Assembly: GCA_051002235.1 (NCBI GenBank)
Contig: JBPCMN010000069.1
Span: 670 to 64,669 of the forward strand
DNA from: Acidimicrobiia bacterium
GTDB lineage: Bacteria > Actinomycetota > Acidimicrobiia > IMCC26256 > JACDBD01
DNA length: 64,000 bases
Direction of reading: 5' to 3'
The notes under the pieces are model-generated. The model searched no databases and was not told where the DNA came from. It was given only the letters and a program-made list of their open reading frames with translations. Positions 22,300-40,754 of the stretch are shown here, piece by piece. A program made the position numbers and the translations under genes. Within the stretch, counting starts at the first letter, position 1; each line of letters begins with the position of its first letter.

Positions 22300-22385
22300 G
22301 TCGGAGTGGCGGAATCGGCAGACGCGCTAGCTTGAGGGGCTAGTGCCCGCAAGGGCGTGGGGGTTCAAGTCCCCCCTCCGACACC
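22300..22385 (+). tRNA. tRNA-Leu (anticodon GAG), class II with long variable arm
   Basis: Acceptor GTCGGAG pairs with CTCCGAC. Anticodon stem CTAGC/GCTAG encloses loop TTGAGGG, giving anticodon GAG. Variable arm TGCCCGCAAGGGCGT, T-arm GGGGG-TTCAAGT-CCCCC, discriminator A, then CC (no encoded terminal A). Confidence 0.9.
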
Positions 22386-23621: not shown

Positions 23622-23647
23622 CGAGCGAACTCCGACGTAGGGCTCCG

Positions 23648-24175: not shown

Positions 24176-24444
24176 GGCGTACGCCTTTCCTTGGGTGGAA
24201 GTTCGGGTGAGTACCCGGACTTCGGTCTTCGTGTGACGCGATCGTGCGCTGAGGGGCTCTCGCGTCACTCCCGCGTGATCTGTTTCGACAAGCGAGGAAC
24301 GGGGATGTCCGATCCGGTTCCCGCGCATGCGCTGCCGACTCTGGAGCAGCGGATGGATGACGTTCGGGCGGTGCTCGACGCGGTCGGTTCGGAGCAGGTG
24401 AGCATCCCCCCTTTCTGTGGAGGCATCACCTATGAGGAGATGTC

Positions 24445-26936: not shown

Positions 26937-26955
26937 CAAGTCCCCCCTCCGACAC
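26937..26955 (+). repeat. 19-bp copy of the tRNA-Leu 3' end (att-like core)
   Basis: CAAGTCCCCCCTCCGACAC is identical to 22366-22384. It is preceded by a ~120-bp block that is also conserved upstream of the copy at 43082-43100. Confidence 0.85.
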
Positions 26956-27410
26956 GCCTGGTCGCGAGCGAAACCGCTGGTCAGCGCCACTGTTACGAGC
27001 GCACGAACCGGCCTGAGGAGCCCCGCGATCACAGAATGATCACAGGGGAGGTGACTCGTGGGCTGGCGCCCGCTCAGCCAAAGGAGCGACGCCGATTCCG
27101 CCAGGAGTGGCCAATCACTCGCGCGGACATCTTCGCCGCCGACGAGGAGTGGATACCGCCATCCTTCCCGCAGGAGACGCCACTCCATCCGCCGATCGGC
27201 GCGTGGTGAGGCTTACGGAAGCGCCAGCGTTCCACGGATCAGGTGTGTGCTTTCGGGCGCCAACGCCTCACCGAGCGGCGGCGCCGGTGGCGGCGGTGAG
27301 TGACGACGACCGCGCATCCCAACGGGGGACCCCTATCGGAGCCCGAGCTGTCCGCGTATAGTCCCCAGAGGGGATATATGACCGATTTGGTCATTGTGGG
27401 GTAGGCGCGC

Positions 27411-28082
27411 ATGACGGTGGGGTGGTATCCCGACCCGACTGGTCGGCGGGAACAGCGGTATTGGGACGGGTCCGCCTGGACTGAACACGTGAGCGCAGGC
27501 GGGCAGCAATCGACGGACGAGATCACCGGGGATTACGCGGCTCCTCGCACACAGGCGACCCAGACGACCTCGACGCAGGCTCCCGTGGCAGTTGCACCCA
27601 GGAAACGTCCACCGACGAACCTGGGGCCGCTGCTCGTCACGCTGGGCGGTGGCGGGCTGATCGCCGGGGCGCTCATGCCGTGGGTGAGCGCGACCGCTCC
27701 GTTCATCGGGCAGGTGTCCTACGCCGGCACGAAGGGTGACGGCCAGCTGACCCTCGTCGGTGGTGCGATCATCGCAGTGCTCGGCCTGGTGCTGTTCAGC
27801 AACCCGGCGAACCGTGCCGCCGCGGTCTTCGCGCTGCTCGTCGCGATCGGCGCGGCGGTGGTGTGCTTCTACGACATCAGCAACGTCTCCGAAGCTGTCG
27901 ACGAAGCCAAGGACCTCGAAGTCGGGGTTGACGCGGAAGTCGGCTCGGGTTTGTACGTCTCGGTCGTCAGCGCCGTTGGCGCCGGCGTCGGAGCGATCAT
28001 TGCCGTGAACACGAAGACCTCAACGCCCCGCGCTGGACGCGAAGAAGCCCCCCGCCCGGAGGCGGGGGGCGTTGACACGTAA
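27411..28082 (+). CDS. DUF2510-like membrane protein
   Basis: N-terminal GWYPDPTGRREQRYWDGSAWTEHV (DUF2510 signature) followed by about four TM segments. A TATAGT -10-like hexamer lies about 50 nt upstream. Confidence 0.7.
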   Translation: MTVGWYPDPTGRREQRYWDGSAWTEHVSAGGQQSTDEITGDYAAPRTQATQTTSTQAPVAVAPRKRPPTNLGPLLVTLGGGGLIAGALMPWVSATAPFIGQVSYAGTKGDGQLTLVGGAIIAVLGLVLFSNPANRAAAVFALLVAIGAAVVCFYDISNVSEAVDEAKDLEVGVDAEVGSGLYVSVVSAVGAGVGAIIAVNTKTSTPRAGREEAPRPEAGGVDT

Positions 28083-28911
28083 GCAGCACGCGATGCTACG
28101 ACCCGCTCAGAGGCAGAGGCCAAGCAGCTGGGAGAGAGCGGCGTTCTGTCGGCTCTCCGTCGCAATCACGGTGGTCGTGGTCGCCGCCGCTCCCGCGTTC
28201 GCCAGCGTGGGGCGTCAGAGTGCTTTACCGGTGGTCATCAGCGGCGAGGAAGCTGCGCCGGCTGACCAATCATTGGTGGGGACAGCCGACACCGCAACCA
28301 TCCCGAAGGGCCGGAATCGGAAGCTCGTCGTTGTAGCGAACGGCCCCTCGCAAGACGGCAGTGTCCCAGTTGTCGTTCGCAACAACAAGAAGCGACGGGT
28401 CACCAACATCGAGGTACAGGGCACCGCGCGGGATGCCGCGGGGACCGTGATCGGGAGCGGCTCGTCCCAGGGCATCGAACCAGCTGCCCTGCCTCCCGGC
28501 GGCATCGGAATCGGTTACGTGTACTTCGGGTTCGACGATGAGCAGCGACTCGCGGACGCCACCTTCAAGTTCACGGTCAGTGCGGAGAAATCGAGTGACG
28601 CGGAGCGCGACTACTTCGTCTCCGTCGAGGTCACCGAGCACAACAAGGTTGAGAGCCTCGAGTTCGACTTTCTGCAGGGCGAGATCGTCGGCATCGTCCG
28701 GAACCCGCTCGACATAGAGGTGACGGGTCCAATCGGAGTCCTCGCGGCGTGTTTCGACGAGAGCGGTGCGCCAGTGCTGTCATCCAGGGGCTACACAGAG
28801 GTCGAAGACCTTCAGCCAGGCGCCGAATCACCGTTTTCGGTCGACTACTTCGAAACGCCGTGTCCCACCTACCTAGTTGGCGCGAGCGGCTTCAATGAGA
28901 GCGCGCTCTAG
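28072..28911 (+). CDS. hypothetical secreted protein
   Basis: 279-aa ORF with an N-terminal hydrophobic segment (LSVAITVVVVAAAPAFASV). No family recognised and the start is uncertain. Confidence 0.5.
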   Translation: MTRKQHAMLRPAQRQRPSSWERAAFCRLSVAITVVVVAAAPAFASVGRQSALPVVISGEEAAPADQSLVGTADTATIPKGRNRKLVVVANGPSQDGSVPVVVRNNKKRRVTNIEVQGTARDAAGTVIGSGSSQGIEPAALPPGGIGIGYVYFGFDDEQRLADATFKFTVSAEKSSDAERDYFVSVEVTEHNKVESLEFDFLQGEIVGIVRNPLDIEVTGPIGVLAACFDESGAPVLSSRGYTEVEDLQPGAESPFSVDYFETPCPTYLVGASGFNESAL

Positions 28912-29091
28912 GTTGATCCATGCAGATGATGCGACGGGAACCCAATCTCGAACGTCTCCACGCGGACCGCGCCATTCCACTCGATCATCTGAGCTGTCGG
29001 CCGCGACTTTGAGGTCAACGGCCTGCTGCGTGAACGCCTGAAATCAGTGCAACCTGTAGCGTCTACTACGGCATAGGGGCGGGGCGGCTCG

Positions 29092-29979
29092 ATGCCGTTT
29101 TCCGCGGTTTCGCGACGTCGTGCAGTGGGAGGCACCCAGCTCGTCGAGAACCGCCGCCAGATCCACGCCTGGGAGCGTGCTGCGCTCGCCGAGCTGCGAA
29201 CCGGCGATCCCGAGACGGCTTTTGACATCTATCGAGACCGCGGGCGCGTCTATCACGCCCAAGACTCCGAGCGGGTGCGGGAGCAACTCGTCGACGACTG
29301 GTGGACCGCCCGCGCCCGCAAGCCGGACAGCATCATGATCGCCAGCCGGCGCGCCGACGTCGACGACCTCAACCACCGCGCCCGCCACCGCCTCGCCACC
29401 GCCAAGCGACTCGGGCCGGACGAACTCATCGCCTGCGGGCGCGCCTTCGCCGTCGGCGACGAGGTCCTCGCTGCCCGCAACGACTACCAACTCGGCATCC
29501 TCAACGGCACCCGCGCCACCATCACCCGAATCGACCATGCCACGGAAACAATCCACGCCCGTCGCGGCTGTGCCAGCCACGAGATCGTCTTCCCACGCGG
29601 CTATGCCGGGGGCGGTTACCTCACCCATGCCTACGCGATGACGTTCCATAAGGCCCAGGGCATGACCGCGACGGAGAGTTTCGTCCTAGGTGACGACACC
29701 CTCGATCGCCAACGTGCCTACACCGGCCTCTCGAGAGGCACACATCGAAACGCGCTCTACATCGAGTCATCCGGCCAAACGAACGAGGAACAGCACGCGC
29801 CGTCAGCCGTGAACGATGCCGTCGCTCGCGCTCGCCTGGCCCTCGCGCGCACGCTCGCCAAGTCCATGGCGACCGACCAAGTCGAGCCCAGCCGCGGCCC
29901 CGCGACCGCGCCCACTCGTGGTGCGCCGTCGCGCCCACCTCCCGCCCCGCCGGACCTCGGACCCGACCTGGGCCTCTGA
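29092..29979 (+). pseudogene. 5'-truncated conjugative relaxase/helicase (MobF TraA/TrwC-like) fragment, C-terminal helicase part only
   Basis: WERAALAELRTGDPETAFDIYRDRGRVY, IMIASRRADVDDLNHRAR, GDEVLAARNDYQLGILNGTRATI, THAYAMTFHKAQGMTA and RQRAYTGLSRGTHRN match the C-terminal RecD-like region of MobF relaxases. No relaxase (HUH) or Walker A region lies upstream. Confidence 0.7.
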
Positions 29980-30211
29980 CGCGCGCCGGCTGAGGGCTTC
30001 GGCCGTTCTCGCATCCTGCGAGATACTCAGGCGTGAAGTGCGCAAAGTATCGCTCACCTCGCCGGCGGGGAACGCGCCATCGGCGAGAACCTCCCTACGT
30101 GGAACGGCTGCAGTAGGTGGGAGCGCAGCGACTTCTCGTACCCGCGCTGATGCCCGGTGCTTGGAGCAGCCGTGCGGGTTACTCTCGCAATCGGCGTTCG
30201 CTGGAACGGGG

Positions 30212-32893
30212 GTGGACGACGTGCCGGCCCATGGCACGACGGTCCTGGTCGACCGCGATTTCGAGCTCCAGGTGCTTTCCGGTGCCGCCGCGGAGGTTGT
30301 CTCGGGTTGGCCTCGACTGGTCGTCGTCACCGGAGAGGCCGGCGCCGGCAAGACCCGGCTGTGGATCGAGTTCGTCGACACGCTTCCCGACGGCTGGTCG
30401 ACCGTCCAGACGTCGGTTCATGGGAGGTCCGGTTCATTTGCGCCGCCGTTCGATGATCTCGTCGGCGGGTTCGAGCCGTCGCTCGACGATCCTGCCGCCG
30501 CACTCGGCCGTGCGCTCGCCGATCGTCTTCGCAACGATGCTGCGCGTCAGCCGGTCGCGTTCTGTGTCGAGGATCTCCATGCTCTCGACCCCGTCGCCGC
30601 CGGCGCGCTGAGCGAGACACTGGATGCCCTGGACGGTGCCTGCGTTTTGCTGGTCGCCACGTCACGCGTCGGCAGCGGCGCCATCGGCGATGCACGTGCG
30701 CGCGCGATCGCGGCGGCGCTCGAGCATCCTGGAGCCACCGAGCTTCGGCTGGGGCCACTCAGCCGCCTGGGCGTGGCGGCGGTGCTGCAGGATCTCACCG
30801 GGCGCCAAGATCCCGGCCGCGTGGATGAGCTCTTGTGGCGCTCGGGCGGCAACCCGCTCTTCCTCGAGGAGCTCGCGATGACCCGTCGCGACGCCGTTCC
30901 GGCCACGGTCCACGAAGCTGTCCACGCGCGACTCGCCGAAGTGGACCGAAGCGCGGCCGACCTAGCCGAGCTCGTTGCCGTCGCGGACACGCCGGTTCCC
31001 GAATCGCTCCTCGGCGAGCTGGCTGACGGGACATCCCGAGCGCTCGCACAATTGCTCGACAACGGGATTGCGATTCGAGTCGGTCACGGCCAGATCGCCC
31101 TTCGGCACGCCGTCGTCGGAGAAGCCCTTGTCGCGGCGATGGCACCGCCTCACCGAGCGCTGCTCCACCGCCAGCTCGCACAGTTGTTGGAGCACAGCCC
31201 GGAAGTGAAGCCCGAAGACCTCGCCCGTCACTGGTCGGCGGCCGGCGAAAATGAGCGCGCCGCGCCTCATGCGCTCGCGGCCGCCGATCGCTGCCATCTG
31301 GTTGGTGCCCACGCGACCGCAAGCGAGTTCTTCGAGATCGGACTACGACACCCGCCGGGCGGTCATGTTGAGCTTCTCCGATATCTAGAGCGAGCGGCCG
31401 TGTCGGCCACCCTGGCCGGCGACGATGCCCGTGCCGCTACCTGTCTGGCCCAGGTCCGAGACTTGCGGGACGAGGACGACCGGGTCCGGTTGGCACATCC
31501 TTGGCTGAACCTCGCCGTCTTGCAGCTTGCCGACCGAGATCAGAGGCGGGCGTATCGAACAATAGCGGGTTCTCCCACGGATCTGCTCGCGACGGCCATG
31601 GGGGCGATCGAACGGGGGGAGTTCGACCGTGCGCGTCGGTTCGCGGCGAGGGCAGCTGATGCCGCATCCACCGCATCAGAGCTGACGTCGTGGGCCACGG
31701 CGGGACTGACGCTGTTCTATGCCGGCGACGTACGCGGTGCGCACACTGCGCTGGGGCGGCTCTCCGACATTGCTCTGGAGACCGGTGACATCTCCATAGC
31801 CGCTCGCGCGTTCGGTCACCGGGCGCGGGTCGGCTGGGGCGCGGGTGAGGTCGAGCTGGCAACGTCGCTCGCTCGCGAGGCGTTGTCGATAGCACTGCGC
31901 GAGCCGCACAGCGGAGTCTGGCCGCACATGCAAGTCGGTCTGATCTCGGCGCTGTCAGCGCGCGCCGACCTGGTCGAAGCGAAGTCGCTCGCTTCCGAGA
32001 TCGTTCGGCTCGAAGATCCGCTCTTGGCGACGATGGTCGAATTCCCGCTCGCGCTGATCGATCTCGAGGAAGGCGAACTCGACAGCGCGCGGTCACGACT
32101 CGAGCCGCTGGCGACGGTGGTCCGGGCCGTTGCCAACGACTACCTCACCGCGCCGGTGATCCTTGCCCTGGCTCGGCTCGAGCTGCTGTCGGACCGCCCG
32201 CGCGAGGGACTCGATCTTCTGGAGGAGGCACACGGGTTGATCCGCTCGCCCTTCCACGACTACGCGTGCGAGCTCCAACATCTGAGTGCGCGCGCCGCCG
32301 TGGCGTGTGGGGACGCGGCGCGGCTGGCCCGTGTGGATGCGGACGCCGCCATGCTCGCTCGTCACCTCAGGGGTCCCGACGTGCAAGCGACAGCGACGTC
32401 CGTCGCCGCCTGGGGAGCGCGGGCCGCCGGACGCCACGAGGAAGCGACGTCGAGGTTCGAGACGGCCGCGACGATTTGGGAGCATGCGCCCCGATGGGGT
32501 CGAGCCGCCGAAGCGTGGCTCGATGCGGCCGAGGCGGCGCGGACGGCCGGGCTCGACCATCGCACGGCTATCGACCGAGGAACGGCGCTCGCTGAGGAGC
32601 ACGGGCTGGGCTGGCAGTCGCGACGGGCGCGCGCGCTCTCGGCGGCGGCCAGCGCCGCGGTGGTGACACCGAGCGACGGCGTCGCCCGCCGGCTCACGCC
32701 GCGGGAGCGCGAGCTCTTGTGCCTGGTCGCGGCGGGGCGGACCAATCGCGAGATCGCCACTGCGCTCTTTCTCTCGCAGCACACGGTGCGCAACTATCTC
32801 GCAGCGTTGTTCGCCAAGCTCGGCGTCGCTCGCCGCGCCGAGGCGGCCGCGCTGGCGGCCCGCTCGCAACTGGCACCGGAACCTCGGGAATAG
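30212..32893 (+). CDS. large ATP-binding LuxR-family (LAL/MalT-like) transcriptional regulator
   Basis: N-terminal P-loop VVVTGEAGAGKTRLWIEF, a long helical/TPR-like middle, and a C-terminal LuxR HTH LTPRERELLCLVAAGRTNREIATALFLSQHTVRNYLAALFAKLGV. GTG 30212 chosen. The ORF-track start at 29816 overlaps the relaxase fragment. Confidence 0.8.
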   Translation: MDDVPAHGTTVLVDRDFELQVLSGAAAEVVSGWPRLVVVTGEAGAGKTRLWIEFVDTLPDGWSTVQTSVHGRSGSFAPPFDDLVGGFEPSLDDPAAALGRALADRLRNDAARQPVAFCVEDLHALDPVAAGALSETLDALDGACVLLVATSRVGSGAIGDARARAIAAALEHPGATELRLGPLSRLGVAAVLQDLTGRQDPGRVDELLWRSGGNPLFLEELAMTRRDAVPATVHEAVHARLAEVDRSAADLAELVAVADTPVPESLLGELADGTSRALAQLLDNGIAIRVGHGQIALRHAVVGEALVAAMAPPHRALLHRQLAQLLEHSPEVKPEDLARHWSAAGENERAAPHALAAADRCHLVGAHATASEFFEIGLRHPPGGHVELLRYLERAAVSATLAGDDARAATCLAQVRDLRDEDDRVRLAHPWLNLAVLQLADRDQRRAYRTIAGSPTDLLATAMGAIERGEFDRARRFAARAADAASTASELTSWATAGLTLFYAGDVRGAHTALGRLSDIALETGDISIAARAFGHRARVGWGAGEVELATSLAREALSIALREPHSGVWPHMQVGLISALSARADLVEAKSLASEIVRLEDPLLATMVEFPLALIDLEEGELDSARSRLEPLATVVRAVANDYLTAPVILALARLELLSDRPREGLDLLEEAHGLIRSPFHDYACELQHLSARAAVACGDAARLARVDADAAMLARHLRGPDVQATATSVAAWGARAAGRHEEATSRFETAATIWEHAPRWGRAAEAWLDAAEAARTAGLDHRTAIDRGTALAEEHGLGWQSRRARALSAAASAAVVTPSDGVARRLTPRERELLCLVAAGRTNREIATALFLSQHTVRNYLAALFAKLGVARRAEAAALAARSQLAPEPRE

Positions 32894-32908
32894 GTACGTC
32901 TGTACCTA
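32891..32908 (+). promoter_or_regulatory. 7-4-7 inverted repeat TAGGTAC-GTCT-GTACCTA between the LuxR gene and the first downstream gene
   Basis: Read directly from the sequence. It is relatively AT-rich for its context and lies 34 nt upstream of ATG 32942. Candidate operator or small hairpin; function is inferred only. Confidence 0.3.
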
Positions 32909-32941
32909 CCGCGGCGAGGGAGAAGCGGTGATGCTGGGTTC

Positions 32942-34762
32942 ATGGCCCAGACGCTGCCCGACGCGCTTGCCTCTGGGCTGCTCACGGGGCTCGTCACTCC
33001 CGTGCTCGACGGTGTGTTGCGTACCGCCCGCATCACACCTCGTCCGGACCCGACCGGGCTCGGTTTGGTCACGCTGGCCGTCGAGCCCGGCCAAACGGTC
33101 GCCGCCCTGACCCAGCGCGTCGACCTTCCGGCCCTCACGGAGGCGGGCGCGGACGCCCTCACGGCGGCCGGTCTTCCCGTCGACCTCGCCGCGCTCAATG
33201 TCCATGTCGACGTCCCCGAGGTCGCCGAGACGTTCGAGCTGAGCCGCCGACTCACCGGCGTCCTCGACGGCACGCTCGAGCTGCCGGCATCCGACGCAGT
33301 CACCGGCACGCTCGACGGCACGGTCGAACTGTCGGCGACCCAACCAGCCGTCGGGACCCTCGACGGCACGGTCCAACTCCCGGAGGTGGGCTCACTCACC
33401 GGGGCGCTCGACGGCACCGTCGAGATTCCGGGGAGCGATGCAGTTGCGGCCCCGCTGGGAGGCACGCTGGACCTCCCCGCCGTCGGCCCAACCACGGGCA
33501 CGCTCGATGGCGCGTTCGGTGCCGTCGATGATCTGAGCCTCGAGGTGCGCCAGCCGACGCAGGCGATCGATGTGTCAGGCTCGCCCGCTCGGCTCGAGCT
33601 GCCCGTGCGCAACTTGCCGCTCCAGACCCTGGCGGAACTCATCGGTGTCGAGCTCAGTTCCGTCTGGTCGGCCGAGCCCGCCGCGCTGTTGGGCCGGACG
33701 GCACAGGCCGCGACGCCCGCTCCGGACGTGCACGTTCCCGCGGTGCCACCGATTCGCGACGATCTTCCCGGCCTCAATCCTGATCGGCCGGCACCAGGCG
33801 ATACGATCGGTCCCCGGCCGGTCGGCGTGAGTGACGGAGCGCTCGTGCCGATCTCGCTCGCGCCCCTCGGCCTGGTGCCGGCCGACGGCCTGCCAGGCCT
33901 TCTGGCGTCATTCCTGCCCGTGCCGCCGGTGACGACGGCGCCGGCGGAGTGGCGCGCCACGGTCAAGGCCCGACTCGGTGTGGAGCGCATCACGGGCCAA
34001 GTCGCCGCCACGCCGATCGCTGACCTGATCGACGTCGCTCAGCTCCTTCCCGACGCTGTCGTGCAGCAGCTCTCGCTCGCGTTCCCAACCATTCCGGTGC
34101 CGCCGATCCTCGCTCTGTTCGTCGGCCGCCGCTATGGCAATCCGGTGCTCATCCTCACCCCGCTGGACATCATGGGCCACTCCCCCGACGCGCTCGTCGC
34201 CCATTGCTCGAGCGTGCTCCAGCAGATCGAGCGCGTCCTTCGGCTGATCCCACACAACCTGCTCGACGACCTCGCCGGTCCGGTCGCGCAGTACACGCGC
34301 GTGGCGACTGCGCTACGGGCCATCCTCCGAGTGCTCGGGGGACCGAACGTGCGGGTCTTGGTCTCGCGCCAGGAGCCGAACCTCAACCTGTTCGACCTCC
34401 AGCTCCGCCGGCTGAACGACACCGAAGCGGACAATGTGTTCTCGTCGTTCGCGTATTTCGGGTTACCCGGGACGAGTGTCGACCTGCACCTCAAGCAGGA
34501 GTTCAGCGGCGCACGCCTGAGGGTCGGGATCAGTGACGGGATGGCCACGGAGGGCCGCCTCGTCACCGCCCACCCGCTGCTCTCTGACGTGAAGCGAGCC
34601 AACCCAGCCGGGGGAGTGCTCGAGGTCGAGCCAGGCATCGGGCGGGACGATGTCGTCGAGTTCGGCTTCGGAAACCGAATCTCGTCGTTCCGCTTCAACG
34701 GCATCCTGGAGTCGCCGCTGGACCGAGAGGTCCAGAGATTGTCGGCGGCTCTCGGCATCTAG
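32942..34762 (+). CDS. hypothetical 606-aa protein with six 16-aa tandem repeats (consensus ..xxxxTGTLDGTVEL)
   Basis: Long ORF with third-position GC bias consistent with neighbouring genes. Repeats occupy aa ~101-194. No signal peptide and no recognisable family. Sits immediately upstream of the lipoprotein/YcaO genes. Confidence 0.6.
   Translation: MAQTLPDALASGLLTGLVTPVLDGVLRTARITPRPDPTGLGLVTLAVEPGQTVAALTQRVDLPALTEAGADALTAAGLPVDLAALNVHVDVPEVAETFELSRRLTGVLDGTLELPASDAVTGTLDGTVELSATQPAVGTLDGTVQLPEVGSLTGALDGTVEIPGSDAVAAPLGGTLDLPAVGPTTGTLDGAFGAVDDLSLEVRQPTQAIDVSGSPARLELPVRNLPLQTLAELIGVELSSVWSAEPAALLGRTAQAATPAPDVHVPAVPPIRDDLPGLNPDRPAPGDTIGPRPVGVSDGALVPISLAPLGLVPADGLPGLLASFLPVPPVTTAPAEWRATVKARLGVERITGQVAATPIADLIDVAQLLPDAVVQQLSLAFPTIPVPPILALFVGRRYGNPVLILTPLDIMGHSPDALVAHCSSVLQQIERVLRLIPHNLLDDLAGPVAQYTRVATALRAILRVLGGPNVRVLVSRQEPNLNLFDLQLRRLNDTEADNVFSSFAYFGLPGTSVDLHLKQEFSGARLRVGISDGMATEGRLVTAHPLLSDVKRANPAGGVLEVEPGIGRDDVVEFGFGNRISSFRFNGILESPLDREVQRLSAALGI
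33242..33523 (+). repeat. about six tandem 48-bp units encoding the TG(T/A)LDGT(V/L)(E/Q)L repeats
   Basis: SRRLTGVLDGTLEL / PASDAVTGTLDGTVEL / SATQPAVGTLDGTVQL / PEVGSLTGALDGTVEI / PGSDAVAAPLGGTLDL / PAVGPTTGTLDGAFGA. The DNA core ctcgacggcac(g/c)(c/g)tcga recurs every 48 nt. Confidence 0.85.
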
Positions 34763-34782
34763 CGCACAAAGAGGAGCACCCC

Positions 34783-35484
34783 ATGTCACCCGAGTACTGG
34801 CGAAGCCCAGACGGTCAAAAGGTCGCGGCGGGTACCGTCGCCTTGCTGGCGGTGTTCGGCCTCGCCGCCTGCGGAGGCGGCGACGGCGCGGACAAAACCG
34901 CGAAGGAACAAGGCACCGCAACCGCGTCCAGGGGCGAGATCGACCCCGTGGTGCAGGTCGACGAAGTCGTCCGAGAGTTCGCCGGCGCCGTCCCGGGAAC
35001 GAACATCTACGCCGCCCTCGTGACCACTGAAGCGGACGACGCCGACGGCACCGGCGGTGAGGACGCCTTCGTCTACCTCTGCGACGGCGCCGCAATCGCC
35101 CAGCGGTTCTTCCAGGTCGAGGGGAACAAGACGCGGTTCGAAAACTTCAACGGGGGAACGGTGAGCGTCAAGGTCGCCGACGGCCAGGCGACAATCACCG
35201 GAAAGCTCAACGACGGCACCCAAGTCGACTTCACGATCCCCGAGGTCGACCCGGACGGACAGCCGGGCCTGTACTTCGCAGGCGACCAGGAGCTCGGTGC
35301 CGAGCCCGGCGACTACGCGGGTTGGATCGTGCTCGCTGACGGCTCCCAGCGGGGCAACGCCGTCATCGGCGGCACCGTGCAGCAGGCCGGCACGCTCGAC
35401 CCGGGCTCGCTCACGGTCACGGGGTCGCCGCTCGTGCAGGTCCGACCGAAGCTGCAGGGCTTTTTCATCATAACCTTCCCTTGA
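34783..35484 (+). CDS. hypothetical lipoprotein
   Basis: GAGGAG RBS and a lipobox in ...GTVALLAVFGLAACGGGDGA (L-A-A-C). The mature part has no recognised family. Confidence 0.65.
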   Translation: MSPEYWRSPDGQKVAAGTVALLAVFGLAACGGGDGADKTAKEQGTATASRGEIDPVVQVDEVVREFAGAVPGTNIYAALVTTEADDADGTGGEDAFVYLCDGAAIAQRFFQVEGNKTRFENFNGGTVSVKVADGQATITGKLNDGTQVDFTIPEVDPDGQPGLYFAGDQELGAEPGDYAGWIVLADGSQRGNAVIGGTVQQAGTLDPGSLTVTGSPLVQVRPKLQGFFIITFP

Positions 35485-35542
35485 TTGTACAGGCGGTGCG
35501 TCTCTCGACGTCGTTGACGAGCTCGTCACCCACCGGCTCGTC

Positions 35543-38023
35543 ATGCGGGACGGTGCTCTGCTCGGAGCGCTCGCTCTTCCAGTCGTGACCGCGCGACAGG
35601 CATCACACCGACGCAACTTCCGCACGCGCGCGATGAACCCCTCGGAGGTCGCATGGGACCTCGATGACCGACTTGCGCCGACCAGTCGCTGGCGGGTTCC
35701 GGACAAGGTCCTGACGCGGGGCACGCACCGCACTCGATCTCTGGAGGAGACCCTGGCATTGATCCTCCCGCACCTCGAGCGGTTCGGGATCACCCGCGTC
35801 GCCGACATCACGGGACTCGACCACGTCGGCATTCCCGTCGTCCATGTCGTGCAACCGATCGCCAAGACGCTCTCGGTCGCCTCCGGCAAGGGGCTCGACC
35901 TGGACGCCGCGCGCGTCTCTGGAATCATGGAGGCAATCGAGGTCGCCTGCGTGGAGACCGCTCCCGAGGTCGTCGTGTGGGGGGCTGGTGAGGGCGTCGC
36001 TCGGGAAGCTGCCGTGCTGCACGCTTGGGGTCTCCCCGTGGCTGCGGGGAGTCGATACAGGCGCGACGTCGACATTCCCTGGGTCCTCGGCACCGACCTT
36101 GCCTCCGGCGATCCCCTGTACGTCCCCGCCGAAGCGGTGCATCTCGACTTCGTCGTGTCGAAGCGCTCTGTCGGCTCCTCCTCCCCGTTTCGGCAGACGA
36201 CGAACGGCCTGGCATCCGGCAATACCCTCGACGAGGCGCTCCTCCATGGACTCTGTGAGCTGGTGGAGCGCGACTGTGGGGGCCGCGCTCAGCGACTCGC
36301 AGGGCACAGGGACCGCCGGCGGCGCCTCGATCTCGAGTCGGTGCACGATGACGCCGCGGCCGGCCTGCTCTCTCGATTGCAGGACGCCCGAATGGCGGTT
36401 GTCGTCTGGGACATCACCGGACCGTCCGGCCTTCCCTGCTTCAGCTGCAAGATCGCCGACCCGAACGACGTGCCGGGGCGCTTCCAGTTTCCCGTCGCCG
36501 AGGGAGAGGGATGCCATCCCGACCGCTCCGTCGCGCTGTGTCGGGCGCTCACGGAAGCGGCCCAGAGCCGGGCCGCCGCGATCTCGGGCGCGCGCGAAGA
36601 CACCGAGGCCATCCGTTCGGGTCGGCCGGATACCCCTGGCCTGTACGAGAGCGTTCTTCGAGCGGCGCGAGAGGGTGGACGCCGTGACTATCGGTCGATC
36701 ACGAGCGTCAGCTCGGGCTCAGTGGGGGAGGACCTCATGCTCGCAGTGCAACGGGTCCAGAGCAGTGGCGTTTCCCAGCTCGCCTTCGTCGATCTCTCAC
36801 CACCCGATGTCCCCATCAGCGTGGCGCGAGTGCTCGCTCCCGGCCTCCTGCTCGCCGGCCACCGCCGGCGCACGAGCCGGACGCGCACCGGTGGGGTGAA
36901 CGCGCGCCCAAGAGGCGGGCGGGCCCGGCCGCCCGTCGTCTTCCTCGGGCCCACGCTTCCGCGCGAGGAGGCGCGCCAGATCCTGGCTGCCGACTACCGG
37001 CCGCCGGTGCAAGCGGGCGACGTGCTGTACGCGCTCGAAGAAGGCCCACCGCCGGCGATCGGCATCATCGATGGACGCCTCGGCGATGTGCCGTCGGTCT
37101 GGCACAAGGAGATCCTCCTCGCGCTCGAGCACGGTGTTCCGGTGCTGGGGGCCGCCAGCATGGGTGCGTTGCGGGCGGCCGAGTTGCACACCCTCGGAAT
37201 GATCGGCATCGGCCGGATCTTCGAGCTGTACCGGGACGGAACGCTCACCAGCGACGACGAGGTCACGGTGACTCACGCCGACTCCGAGCACGGTTTCGCT
37301 CCGCGCTCGGAGGCATTGGTGGACATGCGCGACGACTGCGAGTCAGCGGTGGAGCACGGCGTCATCCCAGCCTCGAGCGCCGAGCTGTTCCTGGAATGCG
37401 CGAAAGGCCTCTACTTCCCCGACCGAACATGGCCCCTCGTGCTTCGCCTCGGGAGAGAAGCAGGAGTCTGCGTCGAGGCTCTCCAGGCGATGGCCACCTT
37501 CACCGCCGGCCGCGGCCCGGGCCTCAAACAGCGCGACGCCGTCACACTGCTGCGGCGGCTCGCACGGGGCGACTTCGAAGCGCCGGGTACCGCGACCTCG
37601 GTGCCGCGGACCGCGTACCTCGAGCGCGCGCGCCACGAAGCCCGGCTCTCAATCGCCGCCGCGCGTCATCCGAGCGGCACAGCGCGAGAGGAAGTCCTCG
37701 ACGCCGCCGAAGAGCAGGCGCTCCTTCGCGTGCTCGCCCGACGCGTCGCCGCCAACCTCGACCTGCAACCGACCGCCTACGATCTCGCGCTCGCCCGGCG
37801 CCAGTTGCTCGCTGAACATGCAATCGACGGAGCCGAGCGTGCCACCGGCCGAGCGCAGCCTGGCGTCTGCGCAGAGGTCGTCGAGGAACTGGTCCGCGAT
37901 GCGGCGCTGCTCGCCCTCCTCCGCACGCGTCTCGAGCTCGAGATCGCGGCCGTCCTTCCTGACGAGCTCGGCCTCGGGGCCGACCCGACGGCGGTCCGAG
38001 GCTGCCGAACGGCGGAAGCATGA
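35543..38023 (+). CDS. YcaO-domain protein fused to a TfuA-like domain (826 aa)
   Basis: The YcaO region shows RTRSLEETLALILPHLERFGITRVADITGLDHVGIPVVHVVQP, SGKGLDLDAARVSGIMEAIE and TNGLASGNTLDEALLHGLCELVERD. A basic linker follows, then the TfuA region with VVFLGPTLPREEARQILAADYRPPVQAGDVLYAL, AIGIIDGRLGDVPSVWHKEILLALEHGVPVLGAASMGALRAAEL and DDEVTVTHA, plus a ~180-aa helical C-terminal extension. It is a single uninterrupted ORF. Confidence 0.85.
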   Translation: MRDGALLGALALPVVTARQASHRRNFRTRAMNPSEVAWDLDDRLAPTSRWRVPDKVLTRGTHRTRSLEETLALILPHLERFGITRVADITGLDHVGIPVVHVVQPIAKTLSVASGKGLDLDAARVSGIMEAIEVACVETAPEVVVWGAGEGVAREAAVLHAWGLPVAAGSRYRRDVDIPWVLGTDLASGDPLYVPAEAVHLDFVVSKRSVGSSSPFRQTTNGLASGNTLDEALLHGLCELVERDCGGRAQRLAGHRDRRRRLDLESVHDDAAAGLLSRLQDARMAVVVWDITGPSGLPCFSCKIADPNDVPGRFQFPVAEGEGCHPDRSVALCRALTEAAQSRAAAISGAREDTEAIRSGRPDTPGLYESVLRAAREGGRRDYRSITSVSSGSVGEDLMLAVQRVQSSGVSQLAFVDLSPPDVPISVARVLAPGLLLAGHRRRTSRTRTGGVNARPRGGRARPPVVFLGPTLPREEARQILAADYRPPVQAGDVLYALEEGPPPAIGIIDGRLGDVPSVWHKEILLALEHGVPVLGAASMGALRAAELHTLGMIGIGRIFELYRDGTLTSDDEVTVTHADSEHGFAPRSEALVDMRDDCESAVEHGVIPASSAELFLECAKGLYFPDRTWPLVLRLGREAGVCVEALQAMATFTAGRGPGLKQRDAVTLLRRLARGDFEAPGTATSVPRTAYLERARHEARLSIAAARHPSGTAREEVLDAAEEQALLRVLARRVAANLDLQPTAYDLALARRQLLAEHAIDGAERATGRAQPGVCAEVVEELVRDAALLALLRTRLELEIAAVLPDELGLGADPTAVRGCRTAEA

Positions 38024-39408
38024 CGCCCGGGCCCGAGCGGGACGTAGAAGGTCGCCCGCCCCTCTACTTCCTCCACATTCCCAAGACGGCGGGGAACACC
38101 GTTTCCTGTTACCTCGCCGCTGGCTTCCGGGCCGACGAGGTCTGTCCCGCGACCGATTGGGCCGCCTTCCTTCGCCTGCCACCGCGGCAACTCGAGCATT
38201 ACCGACTGTTCCACGGCCACTTCGGTGCAATGCTCCCGGCGCTGCTGCCGAGCCGTCCGACCATCGTGAGCATGGTGCGCGATCCGGTCGATCGTGCCGT
38301 CTCTCACTGGCGATACATCCAACGCCACGCCGACCACCGCCTTCATCGAGACGTCATGCAGCAAGGTCCCAGACTCGCTGCGTACTTGCGCAGTCGCATC
38401 CCGAACGCACAGGTACGTCAGCTCGGCGTCGACCGGATCCCAGCCGAGCTCGTGCACCGTTTTCGCACGAGGCCCGAGTGCCATCCGCACGAAGCGAGCC
38501 TCGCGTTCGACCGGTGGACGTCGGGCCATGCAGACCTACTCGAGCGAGCCGTATCTCGCCTGGAAGAGTGCTTTGCCTTCGGGGTCGTGGAGCGACTCGA
38601 CCAGTCCCTCGCCCTCCTTGCGCATGCCCTCGGATGGGCACCTCCGTCGGGGGTCGCGTCGCTGAACGTGAGGCCTCCGAACGAGCCGACCTATGAGCCG
38701 ACTTCCGAGGAGATCGAAATCATTCACGAGCGGGACGCACTCGACGTGGCGCTCTACCACGAAGCCGTCCGGATGTTTGACGAGCGTTGGGAAGCTCTGC
38801 GCCCTGCCGACGCGAGACGGGCCTACGAAGGGCGCGTGGCTCGGCGCTCTCAGCCACTGGAGGCGCCGCTGACGGTCGACATGTCCGAGCGGATCGCGGG
38901 GACAGGCTGGCTTCCGCCAGAGGAAACGATCTCCGGATGGGCGCGCTGGATGGGGCCGGCTGGCCCGGCTTCCATCGACCTCCCCGTGGTGTTGCCGGCT
39001 GGTACTCGGGTCGAGGTCATGTGTACGGCCGCCATGAGCACGGAGCTCCTAGCGGAGTTGACACTGGAGCTCAACGGAACTCCGGTGCCACTGACGTGCG
39101 AGCCGTGCGGTCGAGGCGTGCGGTACGTCGGGATCGTTCCTGAGCAGTCTCAACACCGACCACCGTTCTCGCGCTTCGTCTTCCGCACCCCGAGGACGAT
39201 TACGTGGCGGCTCGAATCGGGGAGCAACGGGGACGCGCTCGACCTTGCCGTGGCGATCTCGTGGATGAGGCTCGTTCCACGCGAGTCGCTCGAGTGGCGG
39301 TCCCCGCCCCAGCGGGTCGCTTCCGGACGTGAGCACGGAACGCAAGTGCTTCCCGTGAGAGCCATGCGGGCCTCGAAGGTCGTGCGAGCTCGCCGCCAGC
39401 GGTCGTGA
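38020..39408 (+). CDS. PAPS-type sulfotransferase-family protein with a ~200-aa C-terminal domain of unknown function
   Basis: 5'-PSB-like motif LYFLHIPKTAGNTV and 3'-PB-like motif IVSMVRDPVDRAVSHWRY. ATGA overlap with the YcaO::TfuA stop suggests translational coupling. Confidence 0.75.
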   Translation: MTPGPERDVEGRPPLYFLHIPKTAGNTVSCYLAAGFRADEVCPATDWAAFLRLPPRQLEHYRLFHGHFGAMLPALLPSRPTIVSMVRDPVDRAVSHWRYIQRHADHRLHRDVMQQGPRLAAYLRSRIPNAQVRQLGVDRIPAELVHRFRTRPECHPHEASLAFDRWTSGHADLLERAVSRLEECFAFGVVERLDQSLALLAHALGWAPPSGVASLNVRPPNEPTYEPTSEEIEIIHERDALDVALYHEAVRMFDERWEALRPADARRAYEGRVARRSQPLEAPLTVDMSERIAGTGWLPPEETISGWARWMGPAGPASIDLPVVLPAGTRVEVMCTAAMSTELLAELTLELNGTPVPLTCEPCGRGVRYVGIVPEQSQHRPPFSRFVFRTPRTITWRLESGSNGDALDLAVAISWMRLVPRESLEWRSPPQRVASGREHGTQVLPVRAMRASKVVRARRQRS

Positions 39409-39809
39409 CAGCGGTCTGCCCGCCCCGTGTCCATCCCGGAGCTGTGTTGGACACCTGTCGACTACCAAGTTGAGGTTTCGCTTCGGGTCTCGCGGAACAG
39501 CAAGCTTCCCGACGTCGCTCCCGACGCGCGACCCAGCGACTGACTGACGCGGCGGGACGTGCCGTCCCGACGCCGCCCGGGCAACGGCGTCGCTGACCGA
39601 CTCGGGACGGAGCCATCCGACTGATGAGCCGACGAGCTGCGCCACGCCTCGCTAGGCGGTAACGGTCGTCGAGGGCCGAGGCGCCGCGTCTAACGCGCGT
39701 CTAACGAACGGGTCGCAAGGGCGTGGTACGGGCCGGCATCACGACGGCTGCGCACCGCACGTGACCTGCTAAAACGCGACGCGCTGACACGCGCTGAACG
39801 TGCCCGAGA

Positions 39810-39864
39810 TGCTTGAGGGGCTAGTGCCCGCAAGGGCGTGGGGGTTCAAGTCCCCCCTCCGACA
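39810..39864 (+). repeat. 55-bp exact copy of the 3' half of tRNA-Leu (anticodon loop to discriminator+C), att-like
   Basis: GCTTGAGGGGCTAGTGCCCGCAAGGGCGTGGGGGTTCAAGTCCCCCCTCCGACAC is identical to 22330-22384. No matching 5' half is present. Confidence 0.9.
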
Positions 39865-39968
39865 CGGAGGTCGAGCGTGGGGGCGGGGGCGACCGAGTCA
39901 TCGTTATCCCAACAGCCTGCAGCTGATCAGCTGACCTTCGCACGCACCTTCGCACGAAGCGTGACCAG

Positions 39969-40007
39969 CCCCACCCGTCACCGGTTCTCCGCCGATGACG
40001 GGTGGGG
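39969..40007 (-). terminator. 12-bp perfect stem hairpin downstream of the small secreted-protein gene (copy B)
   Basis: CCCCACCCGTCA - 15 nt - TGACGGGTGGGG, the same hairpin as at 23583-23621. Confidence 0.4.
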
Positions 40008-40037
40008 CGGGCCAACCCGAAGGAAGTAGGACTCCCG

Positions 40038-40532
40038 TTAGAGCGGGCTGTCGAACTTGTGACAGCCGTAGTACTCGAACGGGACACCGATGTCGGGGAG
40101 GTACGTGTACTCTCGCGTGGGCGGGTCGGTCGGACATGGCTGACCCTGGAAGAGGTCGGCTCTGATGTTGACCTCCTTCCCGAGGAACGGCGCGTCGCTG
40201 GATTCCGGGTCCATCGTGTCGAACACGAGGACGGTGAACTTCTCCGCCGTGCCGGACGTGATGGTCGCGAGCGCGCCGGGTTCTGCGCAGTGCACCGCGT
40301 GCACCACGTAGAGGCAGTCCCAGCCCTCGGCGTGGAGGGCGGCGGGACTCGACTGGGTGCGGACGTCTGCTTCCTGACGGTTCCCTCCGGCTTCAGTGGC
40401 CGGTTTCGCCGGATTGGTCGCATTGGCCCTCCACGGATTCAGGCTCGTGAAGAGCGCCGCGACCCCGAGAGCGATGACGACGACCACTGCCAGCGCTGCG
40501 AGTCGGTATCGACGCAAATTGGTGAGAAGCAT
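40038..40532 (-). CDS. small secreted/membrane-anchored protein with four conserved Cys (paralog B)
   Basis: ATG 40532 (MLLTNLRRYRLAALAVVVVIALGVAALF) after an AAGGAAGG RBS. The C-terminal domain is shared with 23648-24175. The long ORF-track extension to 41654 is antisense to the cyclase gene and was rejected. Confidence 0.7.
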   Translation of the reverse strand: MLLTNLRRYRLAALAVVVVIALGVAALFTSLNPWRANATNPAKPATEAGGNRQEADVRTQSSPAALHAEGWDCLYVVHAVHCAEPGALATITSGTAEKFTVLVFDTMDPESSDAPFLGKEVNIRADLFQGQPCPTDPPTREYTYLPDIGVPFEYYGCHKFDSPL

Positions 40533-40754
40533 GGGATTGCCCTTCCTTTGGTGGAAGTTTCGGGGTGAGGACCTCGAGACTTCGGTCTTCGTGTGCCGAG
40601 ATGGTGCGGGGAGGGCCTCTCGTGTCGGTCTCGGCCGACTCTCAGCTCGCTTTCGTCGGATCGGGACGTCCGCGCGCGCGTCGTAGGCTGGGTGTCGACG
40701 CGGCTCGGAGCCGCATTCACGGCTACCGGCGGGACGCGCGAAACGGGGGGCCGC

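Follow-up and report, generated by a model that had tools for sequence, protein, structure and literature searches.

The gene at 38020..39408 of the window, by which we mean the whole stretch of 64,000 nucleotides analysed, is best read as encoding a tailoring O-sulfotransferase of a peptide-modifying operon, a reading to which we assign a probability of about 0.42. The protein would be a cytoplasmic PAPS-dependent O-sulfotransferase whose acceptor is held by a CBM-like β-sandwich, and it would act in the pathway of the YcaO::TfuA protein encoded directly upstream. YcaO::TfuA is expected to thioamidate a backbone amide of a peptide or protein substrate, while the sulfotransferase would move sulfate from PAPS to a hydroxyl on the YcaO::TfuA product. 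We infer that the two proteins are co-translated and have a substrate in common. The gene and the elements of its catalytic part are as follows.

38020..39408, + strand: sulfotransferase ORF of 462 aa plus stop codon, ATG start (ORF list and translation)
38020..38023, + strand: ATGA start/stop overlap with the YcaO::TfuA gene (sequence ...gaagcATGAcgccc)
38056..38844, + strand: predicted PAPS-dependent sulfotransferase catalytic domain, HS2ST/HS6ST-like, aa ~13-275 (profile, Foldseek and AF2)
38074..38100, + strand: predicted 5'-phosphosulfate-binding loop HIPKTAGNT, aa 19-27, with Lys22 (family alignment)
38212..38220, + strand: His65-Gly-His67, candidate catalytic base (alignment to 4ndz)
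38278..38310, + strand: predicted 3'-phosphate-binding motif RDPVDRAVSHW, aa 87-97, with P89xxR92xxS95 (family alignment)

The ATG of the sulfotransferase (38020-38022) and the TGA of YcaO::TfuA (38021-38023) overlap in the letters ATGA, confirming in the sequence what the earlier note had reported. No other start is available, since the conserved PAPS loop is already reached at aa 14 and the stretch between the upstream in-frame stop and this motif has no further ATG, GTG or TTG. The two halves of the ORF have similar codon-position GC (0.73/0.49/0.75 and 0.70/0.55/0.77) and are both spanned by the full-length homologues P0002 (52% identity) and P0003 (48%), and the exact 462-aa product is also recorded in Logan; the annotation in the NCBI record MGI8797206.1 is limited to the last 273 aa. 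Judged from the sequence, the sulfotransferase is intact, having a full-length ORF, uniform codon-position GC and all key residues.

A family-profile search against the PDB returned the heparan sulfate (HS) 6-O-sulfotransferase 5t03 (E 1.2e-27) and 4ndz (E 2.6e-3), and the HS 2-O and 6-O sulfotransferases 4ndz and 5t03 were also the best Foldseek matches (E about 2e-6, probability 1.0); the AF2 model of the catalytic domain showed pLDDT values mostly of 85-95. The Pfam Sulfotransfer_2 match was below threshold (19.3 bits against a gathering score of 22, E 1.3e-3), and the family assignment therefore depends on the profile and fold evidence. In the family alignment H19, P21, K22, T23, G25, H67 and P89 are nearly invariant columns, and R87 and S95 are invariant. 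The HIPKTAGNT loop corresponds in the alignment to the HS6ST3 loop FLHIQKTGGTT, the HGH region ('lfrGHf') to FYHGHVSY of the HS 2-O-sulfotransferase 4ndz and RDPVDRAVSHW to TMLRDPVSRYLSEW of 5t03. The His pair of 2OST has a catalytic role. The PF03567 consensus includes PxxRxxS (PMC11625862). Profile and model thus identify a PAPS-type sulfotransferase of the HS 2-O/6-O (Sulfotransfer_2) lineage, presumably using PAPS. The sulfotransferase identity proposed earlier is borne out by these matches and by the conserved PSB lysine, PxxRxxS and HGH triad, and both PAPS motifs named then are present, whereas the catalytic domain reaches about aa 275 instead of the ~250 aa first estimated.

The rest of the protein is predicted to consist of two parts.

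38851..39288, + strand: predicted β-sandwich domain, aa ~278-423, with a conserved GxGW...RW(M/T)GP motif (AF2 and Foldseek)
39289..39405, + strand: predicted disordered, Arg/Lys-rich C-terminal tail, aa 424-462 (AF2 and alignment)

The earlier note had described an unrecognised C-terminal domain of ~200 aa. According to the pLDDT values the folded part covers about 145 aa (278-423) and is followed by the disordered tail of roughly 40 aa (pLDDT <50, 29-35), which is unconserved among homologues. When modelled alone by AF2 the domain was all-β with a pLDDT of 91, and the fold search suggested in the note, performed with Foldseek, matched it to MiXBM 7ehg (E 4e-4), CBM35 (2w1w/2w47) and CBM6 (8j3x) with TM about 0.5. 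No Pfam family matched it even at E <= 1, in keeping with the earlier description, but its fold is CBM35/CBM6-like and it is not peculiar to this protein, being present in at least 292 representative protein clusters. About half of the domain representatives (74 of 146) show the sulfotransferase plus β-sandwich architecture, 2-5 tandem copies occur in 40 of the 146, and the other fusion partners are FkbM methyltransferase, PhyH, GT (GT1), Wzy_C and PMT_2. On the strength of the models, we confidently regard the domain as a CBM35/CBM6-like β-sandwich outside the Pfam families. Most likely it docks the acceptor, and the substrate-recognition role envisaged earlier seems reasonable.

A run of genes on one strand begins with the LAL regulator, continues with the 606-aa repeat protein, the lipoprotein and YcaO::TfuA and closes with the sulfotransferase; its upstream genes are separated by short same-strand gaps, and it lies within an island bounded by tRNA-Leu sequences.

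22300..22385, + strand: tRNA-Leu(GAG), left boundary of the island (ARAGORN, Rfam)
26937..26956, + strand: 20-nt copy of the 3' end of tRNA-Leu, with no difference from the right-hand repeat (repeat search and alignment)
29816..32893, + strand: large AAA+/LuxR (LAL-type) regulator, head of the run (Pfam GerE E 3e-15)
32942..34762, + strand: 606-aa repeat protein with about six 16-aa repeats, TGxLDGTxELP (translation)
34783..35484, + strand: 233-aa predicted lipoprotein, lipobox LAAC (translation)
35522..35593, + strand: C-terminal remnant of a RiPP radical-SAM C-methyltransferase of TIGR03975 type, in the frame of the YcaO ORF
35633..38023, + strand: YcaO::TfuA fusion, 796 aa when read from the NCBI start, in an ORF open from 35543
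39811..39868, + strand: 58-nt direct repeat of the tRNA-Leu 3' half, right boundary (98% identical to 22330-22387)

The regulator also gave sub-threshold Pfam matches to AAA_16 (28.9 against 32.6 bits) and AAA_22 (25.0 against 27 bits). The gene of the 606-aa protein contains 48-nt repeats at 33252-33443, and its product found no match in Pfam, NCBIfam, PHROG or the PDB. The lipoprotein has a homologue at L003:9288-9995 (34% identity, E 2e-22), directly 5' of the ST-CTD-PhyH fusion P0004, and P0297 is its only other known homologue. The right-boundary repeat starts 400 nt past the sulfotransferase stop, and the 20-nt copy is, from its sequence, the apparent junction of two tandem island segments. 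No integrase, no glycosyltransferase, sugar-nucleotide or polysaccharide-export gene and no NRPS, PKS or amino-acid pathway scaffold gene was found in the island, the intergenic spaces yielded no precursor peptide, and the 25 commonest Pfam families listed for the flanking core genes include no glycan family. The island also carries a fragment of a helicase and a gene interrupted by IS3.

The YcaO::TfuA ORF matched the Pfam families YcaO (E 4e-68) and TfuA (E 2.5e-41), and the NCBIfam equivalog models for thioamidation YcaO/TfuA below their cut-offs. P0176 is 100% identical to it over 796 aa; the nearest relatives reach at most 42% identity and have no adjoining sulfotransferase, none being seen beside YcaO::TfuA relatives at 3 loci. 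The 24-aa radical-SAM remnant, whose similarity begins 5' of the first start codon of the YcaO ORF, is identical at 16 of 24 positions to the final portion of the radical-SAM protein encoded in L002 (tblastn E 1e-3), which itself matches TIGR03975 at E 2e-70. Its Smith-Waterman score of 68 compares with 27.1 +/- 4.4 (maximum 53) for 5000 shuffles. The occurrence of this remnant upstream of YcaO::TfuA suggests a common ancestry of the window operon and the L002 cluster, where the orthologue of the sulfotransferase is joined to the radical-SAM gene by the ATGA also seen at the YcaO::TfuA junction. As the radical-SAM gene survives only as a remnant, the cluster may be decaying.

Oxidative and peptide-modifying partners recur among the closest relatives of the sulfotransferase. 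P0003 is preceded by an ATGA-coupled TIGR03975 RiPP radical-SAM C-methyltransferase and overlaps a TauD-type oxygenase on its 3' side, P0002 has JmjC_2 upstream and TauD downstream, and P0030 (47.5%) is extended at its C-terminus by a segment that has an HxD...H signature and matches 2OG oxygenases below threshold. At 30-37% identity, PhyH fusions occur (P0035, P0048, P0089 and P0004), and genes for an SDR and an FAD oxidoreductase are found in the L003 neighbourhood. The repeated pairing with hydroxylases suggests that the acceptor hydroxyl must first be made. The co-occurrence of sulfotransferase homologues with YcaO genes, which the earlier note had proposed to examine, came out negative, with neither YcaO nor TfuA found at any of the 102 loci where a sulfotransferase relative occurs.

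Assignment to a peptide-modifying operon is favoured by the conserved K22, H65-G-H67, R87 and P89xxR92xxS95 in an intact ORF, by the ATGA junction and the short upstream gaps, and by the partners of the nearest full-length relatives, which are of peptide or oxidation type and not glycan genes. The radical-SAM remnant shared with the L002 cluster, the lipoprotein homologue adjoining P0004 and an island in which no glycosyltransferase or polysaccharide-export gene was seen point the same way, as do the precedents of a sulfated thioamide RiPP (PMC3621798) and of a mycobacterial neighbourhood (PMC6511847). The assignment is weakened by the missing precursor, by a YcaO-sulfotransferase pairing seen in no other examined locus, by the absence here of the relatives' oxygenase partner and by the reduction of the radical-SAM gene. 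Further points against it are that all solved relatives of the catalytic domain sulfate sugars, that the CBM-like domain accompanies glycan-modifying enzymes and that L087 and L089 are glycan-linked.

These last points belong to the main competing explanation, rather unlikely in our judgement, that the protein is a glycan or glycoconjugate O-sulfotransferase acting on a sugar hydroxyl. The acceptor gripped by its CBM-like domain, whether a polysaccharide, a lipid-linked oligosaccharide or the glycan of a glycoprotein, would be produced by genes located elsewhere in the genome. Its place behind YcaO::TfuA would then have arisen by chance as the island was assembled, or reflect an island-borne surface-glycan modification. 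Besides the solved relatives, solely HS 6-O and 2-O sulfotransferases, the CBM35, CBM6 and MiXBM fold of the C-terminal domain, its tandem copies and its fusions to FkbM methyltransferases, GT1, Wzy_C and PMT_2 are consistent with this role. Distant relatives (25-35% identity) belong to ordinary polysaccharide loci, in the company of FkbM, GT4 and ABC-2 exporters; among 89 neighbours counted across 24 genome loci, the commonest families are GT1/GT4, ABC-2 exporters, FkbM and other sulfotransferases, and an operon of the Pannonibacter plasmid NZ_CP032313 has the order GT1-GT4-ABC-FkbM-ST-ST. Within the ~50%-identity clade, the sulfotransferase of L087 is fused to GT2 and L089 lies downstream of a WbsX glycosyltransferase, and PF03567 sulfotransferases occur in EPS clusters of cyanobacteria (PMC8205485) and Actinoplanes (PMC13390465). 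Membership in a polysaccharide sulfotransferase family, which the earlier note had set against its own proposal, therefore applies at 25-35% identity but not in the nearest clade, where the three closest domain-bearing relatives (P0002, P0003 and P0030) have radical-SAM or oxygenase partners. Glycan sulfation is further opposed by the lack of glycan genes in the island and among the commonest flanking families, by the tight ATGA link to a peptide-modifying enzyme and by the hydroxylase pairing, as prior formation of a hydroxyl would be unneeded for sugars.

It is improbable that the decay of a biosynthetic cluster on a degenerate island has left this gene stranded, its product being an intact enzyme that, through loss of the radical-SAM methyltransferase, oxygenase and precursor, would have no dedicated substrate or no expression. 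The radical-SAM gene is down to about 24 codons, no TauD/PhyH partner is present, the sulfotransferase abuts the right island repeat, neither precursor nor integrase was found, and the island carries the broken genes described above; however, neither YcaO::TfuA nor the sulfotransferase is truncated or lacks a key residue, and the overlap junction and normal codon-position GC throughout the ORF are retained. Sulfation of a hydroxylated amino acid or other small metabolite, with YcaO::TfuA acting on another target, is less probable still. Hydroxylase-plus-sulfotransferase steps exist in some natural-product pathways, relatives are repeatedly fused or adjacent to TauD, clavaminate-synthase-like or PhyH oxygenases, and SDR and FAD oxidoreductase genes occur near the relative in L003, but the island lacks NRPS, PKS and amino-acid pathway genes and a 145-aa β-sandwich docking domain would be atypical for small-molecule sulfotransferases.

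Compared with known systems, the window enzyme has the PAPS-binding fold of the HS 6-O- and 2-O-sulfotransferases (5t03, 4ndz; PF03567 and relatives), the 3'-PB motif LRDPVxRxxS and the HGH triad of 2OST, with FLHIPKTAG in place of FLHIQKTGG in the 5'-PSB loop. Unlike the animal HS enzymes, to which it is about 20% identical, it is bacterial, predicted to be cytoplasmic and without membrane anchor, and carries the extra β-sandwich domain. The 'sulfotransferase family 2' proteins of polysaccharide loci such as that of Pannonibacter share its two-domain architecture at 24-35% full-length identity; they adjoin glycosyltransferases and ABC-2 exporters, whereas the window enzyme adjoins YcaO::TfuA and its nearest relatives adjoin radical-SAM or 2OG-oxygenase genes. 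The literature searched contained no biochemically characterised bacterial homologue of the two-domain family. With the CBM35/CBM6 modules and the xylan-binding MiXBM the C-terminal domain has in common the β-sandwich fold (Foldseek E 4e-4 to 1e-2, probability about 1) and, with CBM35/CBM6-type modules, the modular and tandem-array occurrence; it differs in its 9-15% identity, the lack of a Pfam CBM match, its own GxGW...RW motif and its attachment to transferases instead of glycoside hydrolases.

YcaO and TfuA domains, fused here, are common to the thioamidation systems of thioviridamide/thioamitides, thiovarsolins and McrA thioglycine, unlike which the window locus yielded no precursor gene. 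RaxST, the RaxX tyrosine sulfotransferase, is a peptide-sulfating enzyme of a RiPP pathway; like MbnS it performs PAPS-dependent sulfation of a ribosomal peptide, and both are devoid of the β-sandwich domain. Methanobactins combine a thioamide and MbnS sulfation in one product (PMC3621798), but their thioamide is made without YcaO and MbnS belongs to PF00685, whereas the window sulfotransferase is of the HS2ST/HS6ST lineage. A YcaO-TfuA/type III PKS/sulfotransferase neighbourhood has been reported in mycobacteria and resembles the window in having a sulfotransferase nearby, the family of which is not stated there (PMC6511847). Given the mycobacterial and methanobactin examples, the earlier description of sulfation and YcaO chemistry as an unusual tailoring pair was overstated.

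The ORF at 38020-39408 (+) encodes a product of 462 aa and begins in an ATGA, the ATG being its own start and the TGA the stop of the YcaO::TfuA ORF upstream. Translation of the ORF and the sequence itself thus bore out the reading frame and the overlap described in the earlier note. Since short start/stop overlaps like this one recur elsewhere in the window at several gene pairs, for example at 51795/51798, this overlap represents an ordinary operon junction with nothing exceptional about it. No other start is possible, as the conserved PAPS loop already opens at residue 14. The codon-position GC pattern is equal in both halves of the ORF. The NCBI record MGI8797206.1 ("hypothetical protein", locus tag ACR2IR_11605) starts from an internal GTG and covers 38587-39408; as only these last 273 aa are annotated, the catalytic half of the gene is hidden in that public record, and the complete product of 462 aa is known from the calls of a different gene caller. 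An exact look-up of the 273-aa version among gene calls, aimed at those of the source contig, returned no entry. The idea behind the NCBI version, in which the C-terminal half stands as a gene of its own, was rejected because homologues of 475-489 aa are collinear with both halves; a full-length AF2 model (pTM 0.82), confident across both halves, also counters this idea.

The N-terminal half carries the features of a PAPS-type sulfotransferase. The strand-loop-helix that binds the 5'-phosphosulfate, with its conserved lysine (PKTxGT), and the PxxRxxS motif that binds the 3'-phosphate have both been described (PMC11625862). The former is present as HIPKTAGNT, which aligns to the loop of HS6ST3 and whose K22 is nearly invariant across 14 homologues. 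The latter is present as P89-V-D-R92-A-V-S95; this segment aligns to LRDPVSRYLS of 5t03, and R87 and S95 are invariant in the homologue alignment, in which H67 is nearly invariant as well. The triad H65-G-H67 aligns to the HGH of HS2ST (2OST) and, given the role of the latter, is a candidate for the catalytic base in the acceptor site. The protein scored 19.3 bits against PF03567 (Sulfotransfer_2), below the gathering threshold of 22, and gave no match in an NCBIfam scan. A profile of the 14 homologues searched against the PDB retrieved the zebrafish heparan sulfate 6-O-sulfotransferase 5t03 (E 1.2e-27) and the heparan sulfate 2-O-sulfotransferase 4ndz (E 2.6e-3). The AF2 model showed a sulfotransferase α/β fold (pLDDT 81.8, pTM 0.82), for which Foldseek returned 4ndz and 5t03 first (E about 2e-6, probability 1.0). 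Given these conserved family features and the lack of any signal peptide or membrane segment in the protein, we conclude that it is an intact cytoplasmic sulfotransferase of the carbohydrate-type lineage, with PAPS as its most likely cofactor. To our knowledge, bacterial sulfotransferases of this HS2ST/HS6ST-like lineage are almost entirely uncharacterised.

The C-terminal half was modelled as an all-β fold from about residue 284 to 419, followed by a disordered, basic tail (residues 424-462); the domain modelled alone reached a pLDDT of 91. Its best PDB match in Foldseek was the xylan-binding module 7ehg (E 4e-4), with further matches to CBM35 (2w1w, 2w47) and CBM6 (8j3x), these four at a probability of about 1 and TM scores of 0.46-0.56. 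Glycoside hydrolases were also matched, through their accessory β-sandwiches; overall the TM score was about 0.5 and the identity 9-15%. The predicted fold is therefore a β-sandwich (jelly-roll) of the CBM6/CBM35 type. By sequence, the domain falls into no described CBM family, and alone it gave no Pfam match at E <= 1. Residues 525-560 of the homologue P0045, within its β-sandwich domain, showed a weak match to Pfam DUF7024 (E 0.022), a lead to a distant family relationship. The earlier note had seen in this half a domain without a recognisable motif, which held as far as Pfam is concerned; the domain nevertheless proved to be a widespread module with a CBM-like fold, as a domain-only search of 1.84 billion cluster representatives returned 292 matches at E <= 1e-3. 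Among the best 146 of these 292, a sulfotransferase domain precedes the β-sandwich in 74 and is absent in 72, and 40 of the 146 carry two to five tandem copies. An FkbM methyltransferase is the partner in 11 of 80 proteins scanned; other partners are PhyH dioxygenases, class I methyltransferases, GT1, Wzy_C, PMT_2 and one radical-SAM/SPASM protein. Conservation peaks at the Gly-Trp and the Trp of a GxGW...RW motif, with conserved aromatics. These GW/RW aromatics and the mostly glycan-modifying fusion partners would indirectly support carbohydrate binding by the predicted CBM-like domain, which appears to behave like a portable binding module of glycan-decorating enzymes. The domain is uncatalogued but widespread; its partners include sulfo-, methyl- and glycosyltransferases, and as it comprises no fewer than 292 clusters when grouped at 50% identity, the family is sizeable and deserves a definition of its own. 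The predicted chemistry, PAPS-dependent O-sulfation by an enzyme equipped with a putative binding module, is well supported.

Exact protein matches assign the window to an Acidimicrobiia MAG. The gene lies on a tRNA-linked island. The core genes upstream end with gap-pgk-tpi, followed by tRNA-Leu(GAG) at 22300-22385. The 3' 58 nt of this tRNA recur at 39811-39868 (98%), 400 nt after the sulfotransferase stop, and a 20-nt copy of its 3' end occurs at 26937-26956. Two tandem segments bounded by these 20-nt and 58-nt direct repeats thus follow the tRNA (22300-22387), and the position of the two repeats places the sulfotransferase at the right end of the 12.9-kb second segment (26957-39868) of a 17.5-kb island. 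Third-position GC is 0.75-0.86 in island genes vs 0.90-0.98 in core genes, and overall GC is 0.66-0.68 in the island vs about 0.70 in the flanks (window about 0.69). Neither segment yielded an integrase or recombinase in Pfam and PHROG scans; the sole finds of this kind were a transposase of IS3 type (24708-25622) and a fragment of a helicase, the latter resembling mobile-element debris. The first segment contains an 87%-identical copy of the region bordering the island on its right (23583-24273 vs 39969-40633; the feature also takes in 24445-25622 and 25897-26817). The copy comprises a small secreted protein gene and the first part of the BTAD-hydrolase-cyclase regulator gene 40593-42962, and an IS3-family transposase interrupts this regulator copy. 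The second segment contains, in order:

DUF2510 protein
unknown ORF
29092-29979, Dda/RecD-like helicase fragment (SH3_13 and UvrD_C_2 only), overlapping the start of the next gene
large AAA+/LuxR (LAL) regulator
32942-34762, 606-aa repeat protein
34783-35484, predicted lipoprotein, lipobox LAAC
35522-35593 (+), 72 nt (24 codons) after the lipoprotein gene and before the annotated start of YcaO::TfuA, sharing the frame of the YcaO ORF
ending at 38023, YcaO::TfuA
38020-39408 (+), sulfotransferase

YcaO (Pfam E 4e-68) and TfuA (E 2.5e-41) are adjacent in one ORF, and matches to the NCBIfam thioamidation-type YcaO and TfuA models fell below the equivalog cut-offs. The TfuA domain is followed by some 170 further aa (37523-38020, residues about 631-796) that matched no Pfam family. 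No plausible short ORF for a precursor peptide was found in any intergenic region of the island, the short ORFs there all resembling non-coding junk, and a promoter/terminator scan of the operon was uninformative. The 606-aa protein, encoded directly upstream of the lipoprotein and YcaO::TfuA genes, has no detectable family. A 16-aa unit (TGxLDGTxELP) occurs about six times close to the N-terminus, at 33252-33443, and the protein is a candidate substrate. Neither it nor the lipoprotein matched PDB, PHROGs or NCBIfam entries. A homologue of the lipoprotein (34% identity, E 2e-22) is encoded at 9288-9995 of L003, directly upstream of the gene for the sulfotransferase relative P0004, and a collection of 5.8 billion proteins held just one further homologue, on a 2.4-kb contig.

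Of the 24 residues encoded at 35522-35593, 16 are identical to the C-terminal end of a TIGR03975 radical-SAM protein of L002, the locus of the relative P0003 (tblastn E 1e-3; Smith-Waterman score 68 vs 27 +/- 4.4 for shuffled sequences, maximum 53 in 5000). As the similarity starts before the first possible start codon, this stretch resembles the stump of a deleted gene. It links the cluster in the window to that of L002 beyond the sulfotransferase alone, and suggests partial decay of the former.

Within the nearest clade of the sulfotransferase, at about 50% mutual identity, the partner genes are mixed. The gene for P0003 (48%; JGI 3300078400) follows, through an ATGA junction, that of a "RiPP maturation radical SAM C-methyltransferase" (TIGR03975, E 2e-70 for the half present in the contig), so that an orthologue is associated with another RiPP-class enzyme, of the family whose remnant lies in the window; it also overlaps a downstream TauD-type oxygenase gene. 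P0002 (52%; SRR33230376) is flanked by a JmjC_2 oxygenase and a TauD/clavaminate-synthase-like oxygenase. The third-closest relative, the metagenomic P0030 (767 aa), is 47.5% identical over both domains. Its 340-aa C-terminal extension (residues ~430-767) bears an HxD...H signature, gave only sub-threshold Pfam matches to 2OG-FeII_Oxy_5 and PhyH and matched no PDB sequence; it may be a fused oxygenase domain of a divergent family. P0035, P0048, P0089 and P0004 (30-37%) are fusions of sulfotransferase, β-sandwich domain and PhyH. This recurring link to hydroxylases suggests that, in the nearest branch, the hydroxyl to be sulfated is often introduced beforehand, which would point away from sugars. 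In the window, tblastn found no remnants of the TauD, JmjC, PhyH or FAD partners, the radical-SAM C-terminus being the only match, and among 105 loci (L001-L105) these partners of the relatives occurred in their own loci only.

We tentatively favour, at a probability of about 0.4, a role of the enzyme in tailoring the product, a peptide or a protein, that the YcaO::TfuA operon makes. This reading was placed first because the two genes are tightly joined, because the three closest relatives with the β-sandwich have RiPP-type and oxygenase partners, because a stump of the radical-SAM gene persists, and because none of the genes examined is a glycan gene.

Sulfation of a glycan, a somewhat unlikely alternative, would agree with the CBM-like fold of the C-terminal domain and with the glycosyltransferase-linked members of the nearest clade: at L087 the sulfotransferase is fused to a GT2 glycosyltransferase and has no β-sandwich, and at L089 it comes after a WbsX glycosyltransferase and two methyltransferases. 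It is also favoured by the context of the whole family. More distant relatives, with 24-35% full-length identity, occur in Cyanobacteria, Planctomycetota, Chloroflexota, Nitrosopumilales and others. Their loci were searched with a three-sequence alignment. When the two neighbouring ORFs per side were surveyed at 24 genome loci, GT1/GT4 glycosyltransferases, ABC-2 exporter pairs, methyltransferases (FkbM among them) and additional sulfotransferases came up most often, and GDP-mannose dehydratase and epimerase once each. A plasmid search yielded distant relatives only, with no match to the Synechocystis xss sulfotransferases; an annotated Pannonibacter plasmid operon reads GT1-GT4-ABC permease-ATPase-FkbM-ST-ST. 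This survey and the operon agree with the PF03567 sulfotransferases reported in EPS clusters of cyanobacteria (PMC8205485) and Actinoplanes (PMC13390465). No glycosyltransferase was found in the island around the present gene.

That the cluster as a whole is a relic, a reading to which the radical-SAM stump is relevant, is distinctly unlikely; the sulfotransferase itself is intact. A small-molecule acceptor, in place of an operon peptide or a glycan, is improbable.

The earlier note had suggested that sulfation and YcaO chemistry would make an unusual tailoring pair. Its interpretation is borne out in part: the sulfotransferase and the junction stand, but the pairing recurs in no sampled locus: YcaO or TfuA was found within 10 kb at none of 102 loci of sulfotransferase relatives (8 contig look-ups, 75 genome and 19 metagenome loci), and no sulfotransferase lies beside the YcaO::TfuA relatives (at most 42% identity) at three loci. 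In L010, where a gene of 454 aa overlaps the YcaO::TfuA relative at its end, that gene is not a sulfotransferase. The protein thus belongs to a known enzyme class and carries an accessory domain that is uncatalogued, and its gene context is absent from every other sampled locus.

Ribosomal peptides are rarely tailored by sulfation. Were the enzyme to act together with YcaO::TfuA, it would represent a sulfating module new to RiPP pathways, and its β-sandwich a new kind of domain for docking substrates. More speculatively, and rather doubtfully at present, the HS2ST/HS6ST-like clade with the β-sandwich might have been recruited as a portable RiPP tailoring module beside Fe(II)/2OG hydroxylases, TIGR03975 radical-SAM enzymes and, here, YcaO::TfuA. 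YcaO::TfuA would then be a thioamide synthetase, the product a peptide both sulfated and thioamidated, and the β-sandwich a new peptide-recognition domain distinct from an RRE. If the acceptor is a glycan, the enzyme would add to recent hints of sulfated surface polymers in Actinomycetota, beyond cyanobacteria, and such a function would be moving on a tRNA-linked island.

Among known systems, a mycobacterial YcaO-TfuA has been reported near a sulfotransferase whose family is not stated (PMC6511847). Sulfate and thioamide occur together in the peptide methanobactin, which is sulfated by MbnS (PMC3621798); however, MbnS is a PF00685 enzyme, whereas the sulfotransferase described here belongs to the HS2ST/HS6ST lineage.
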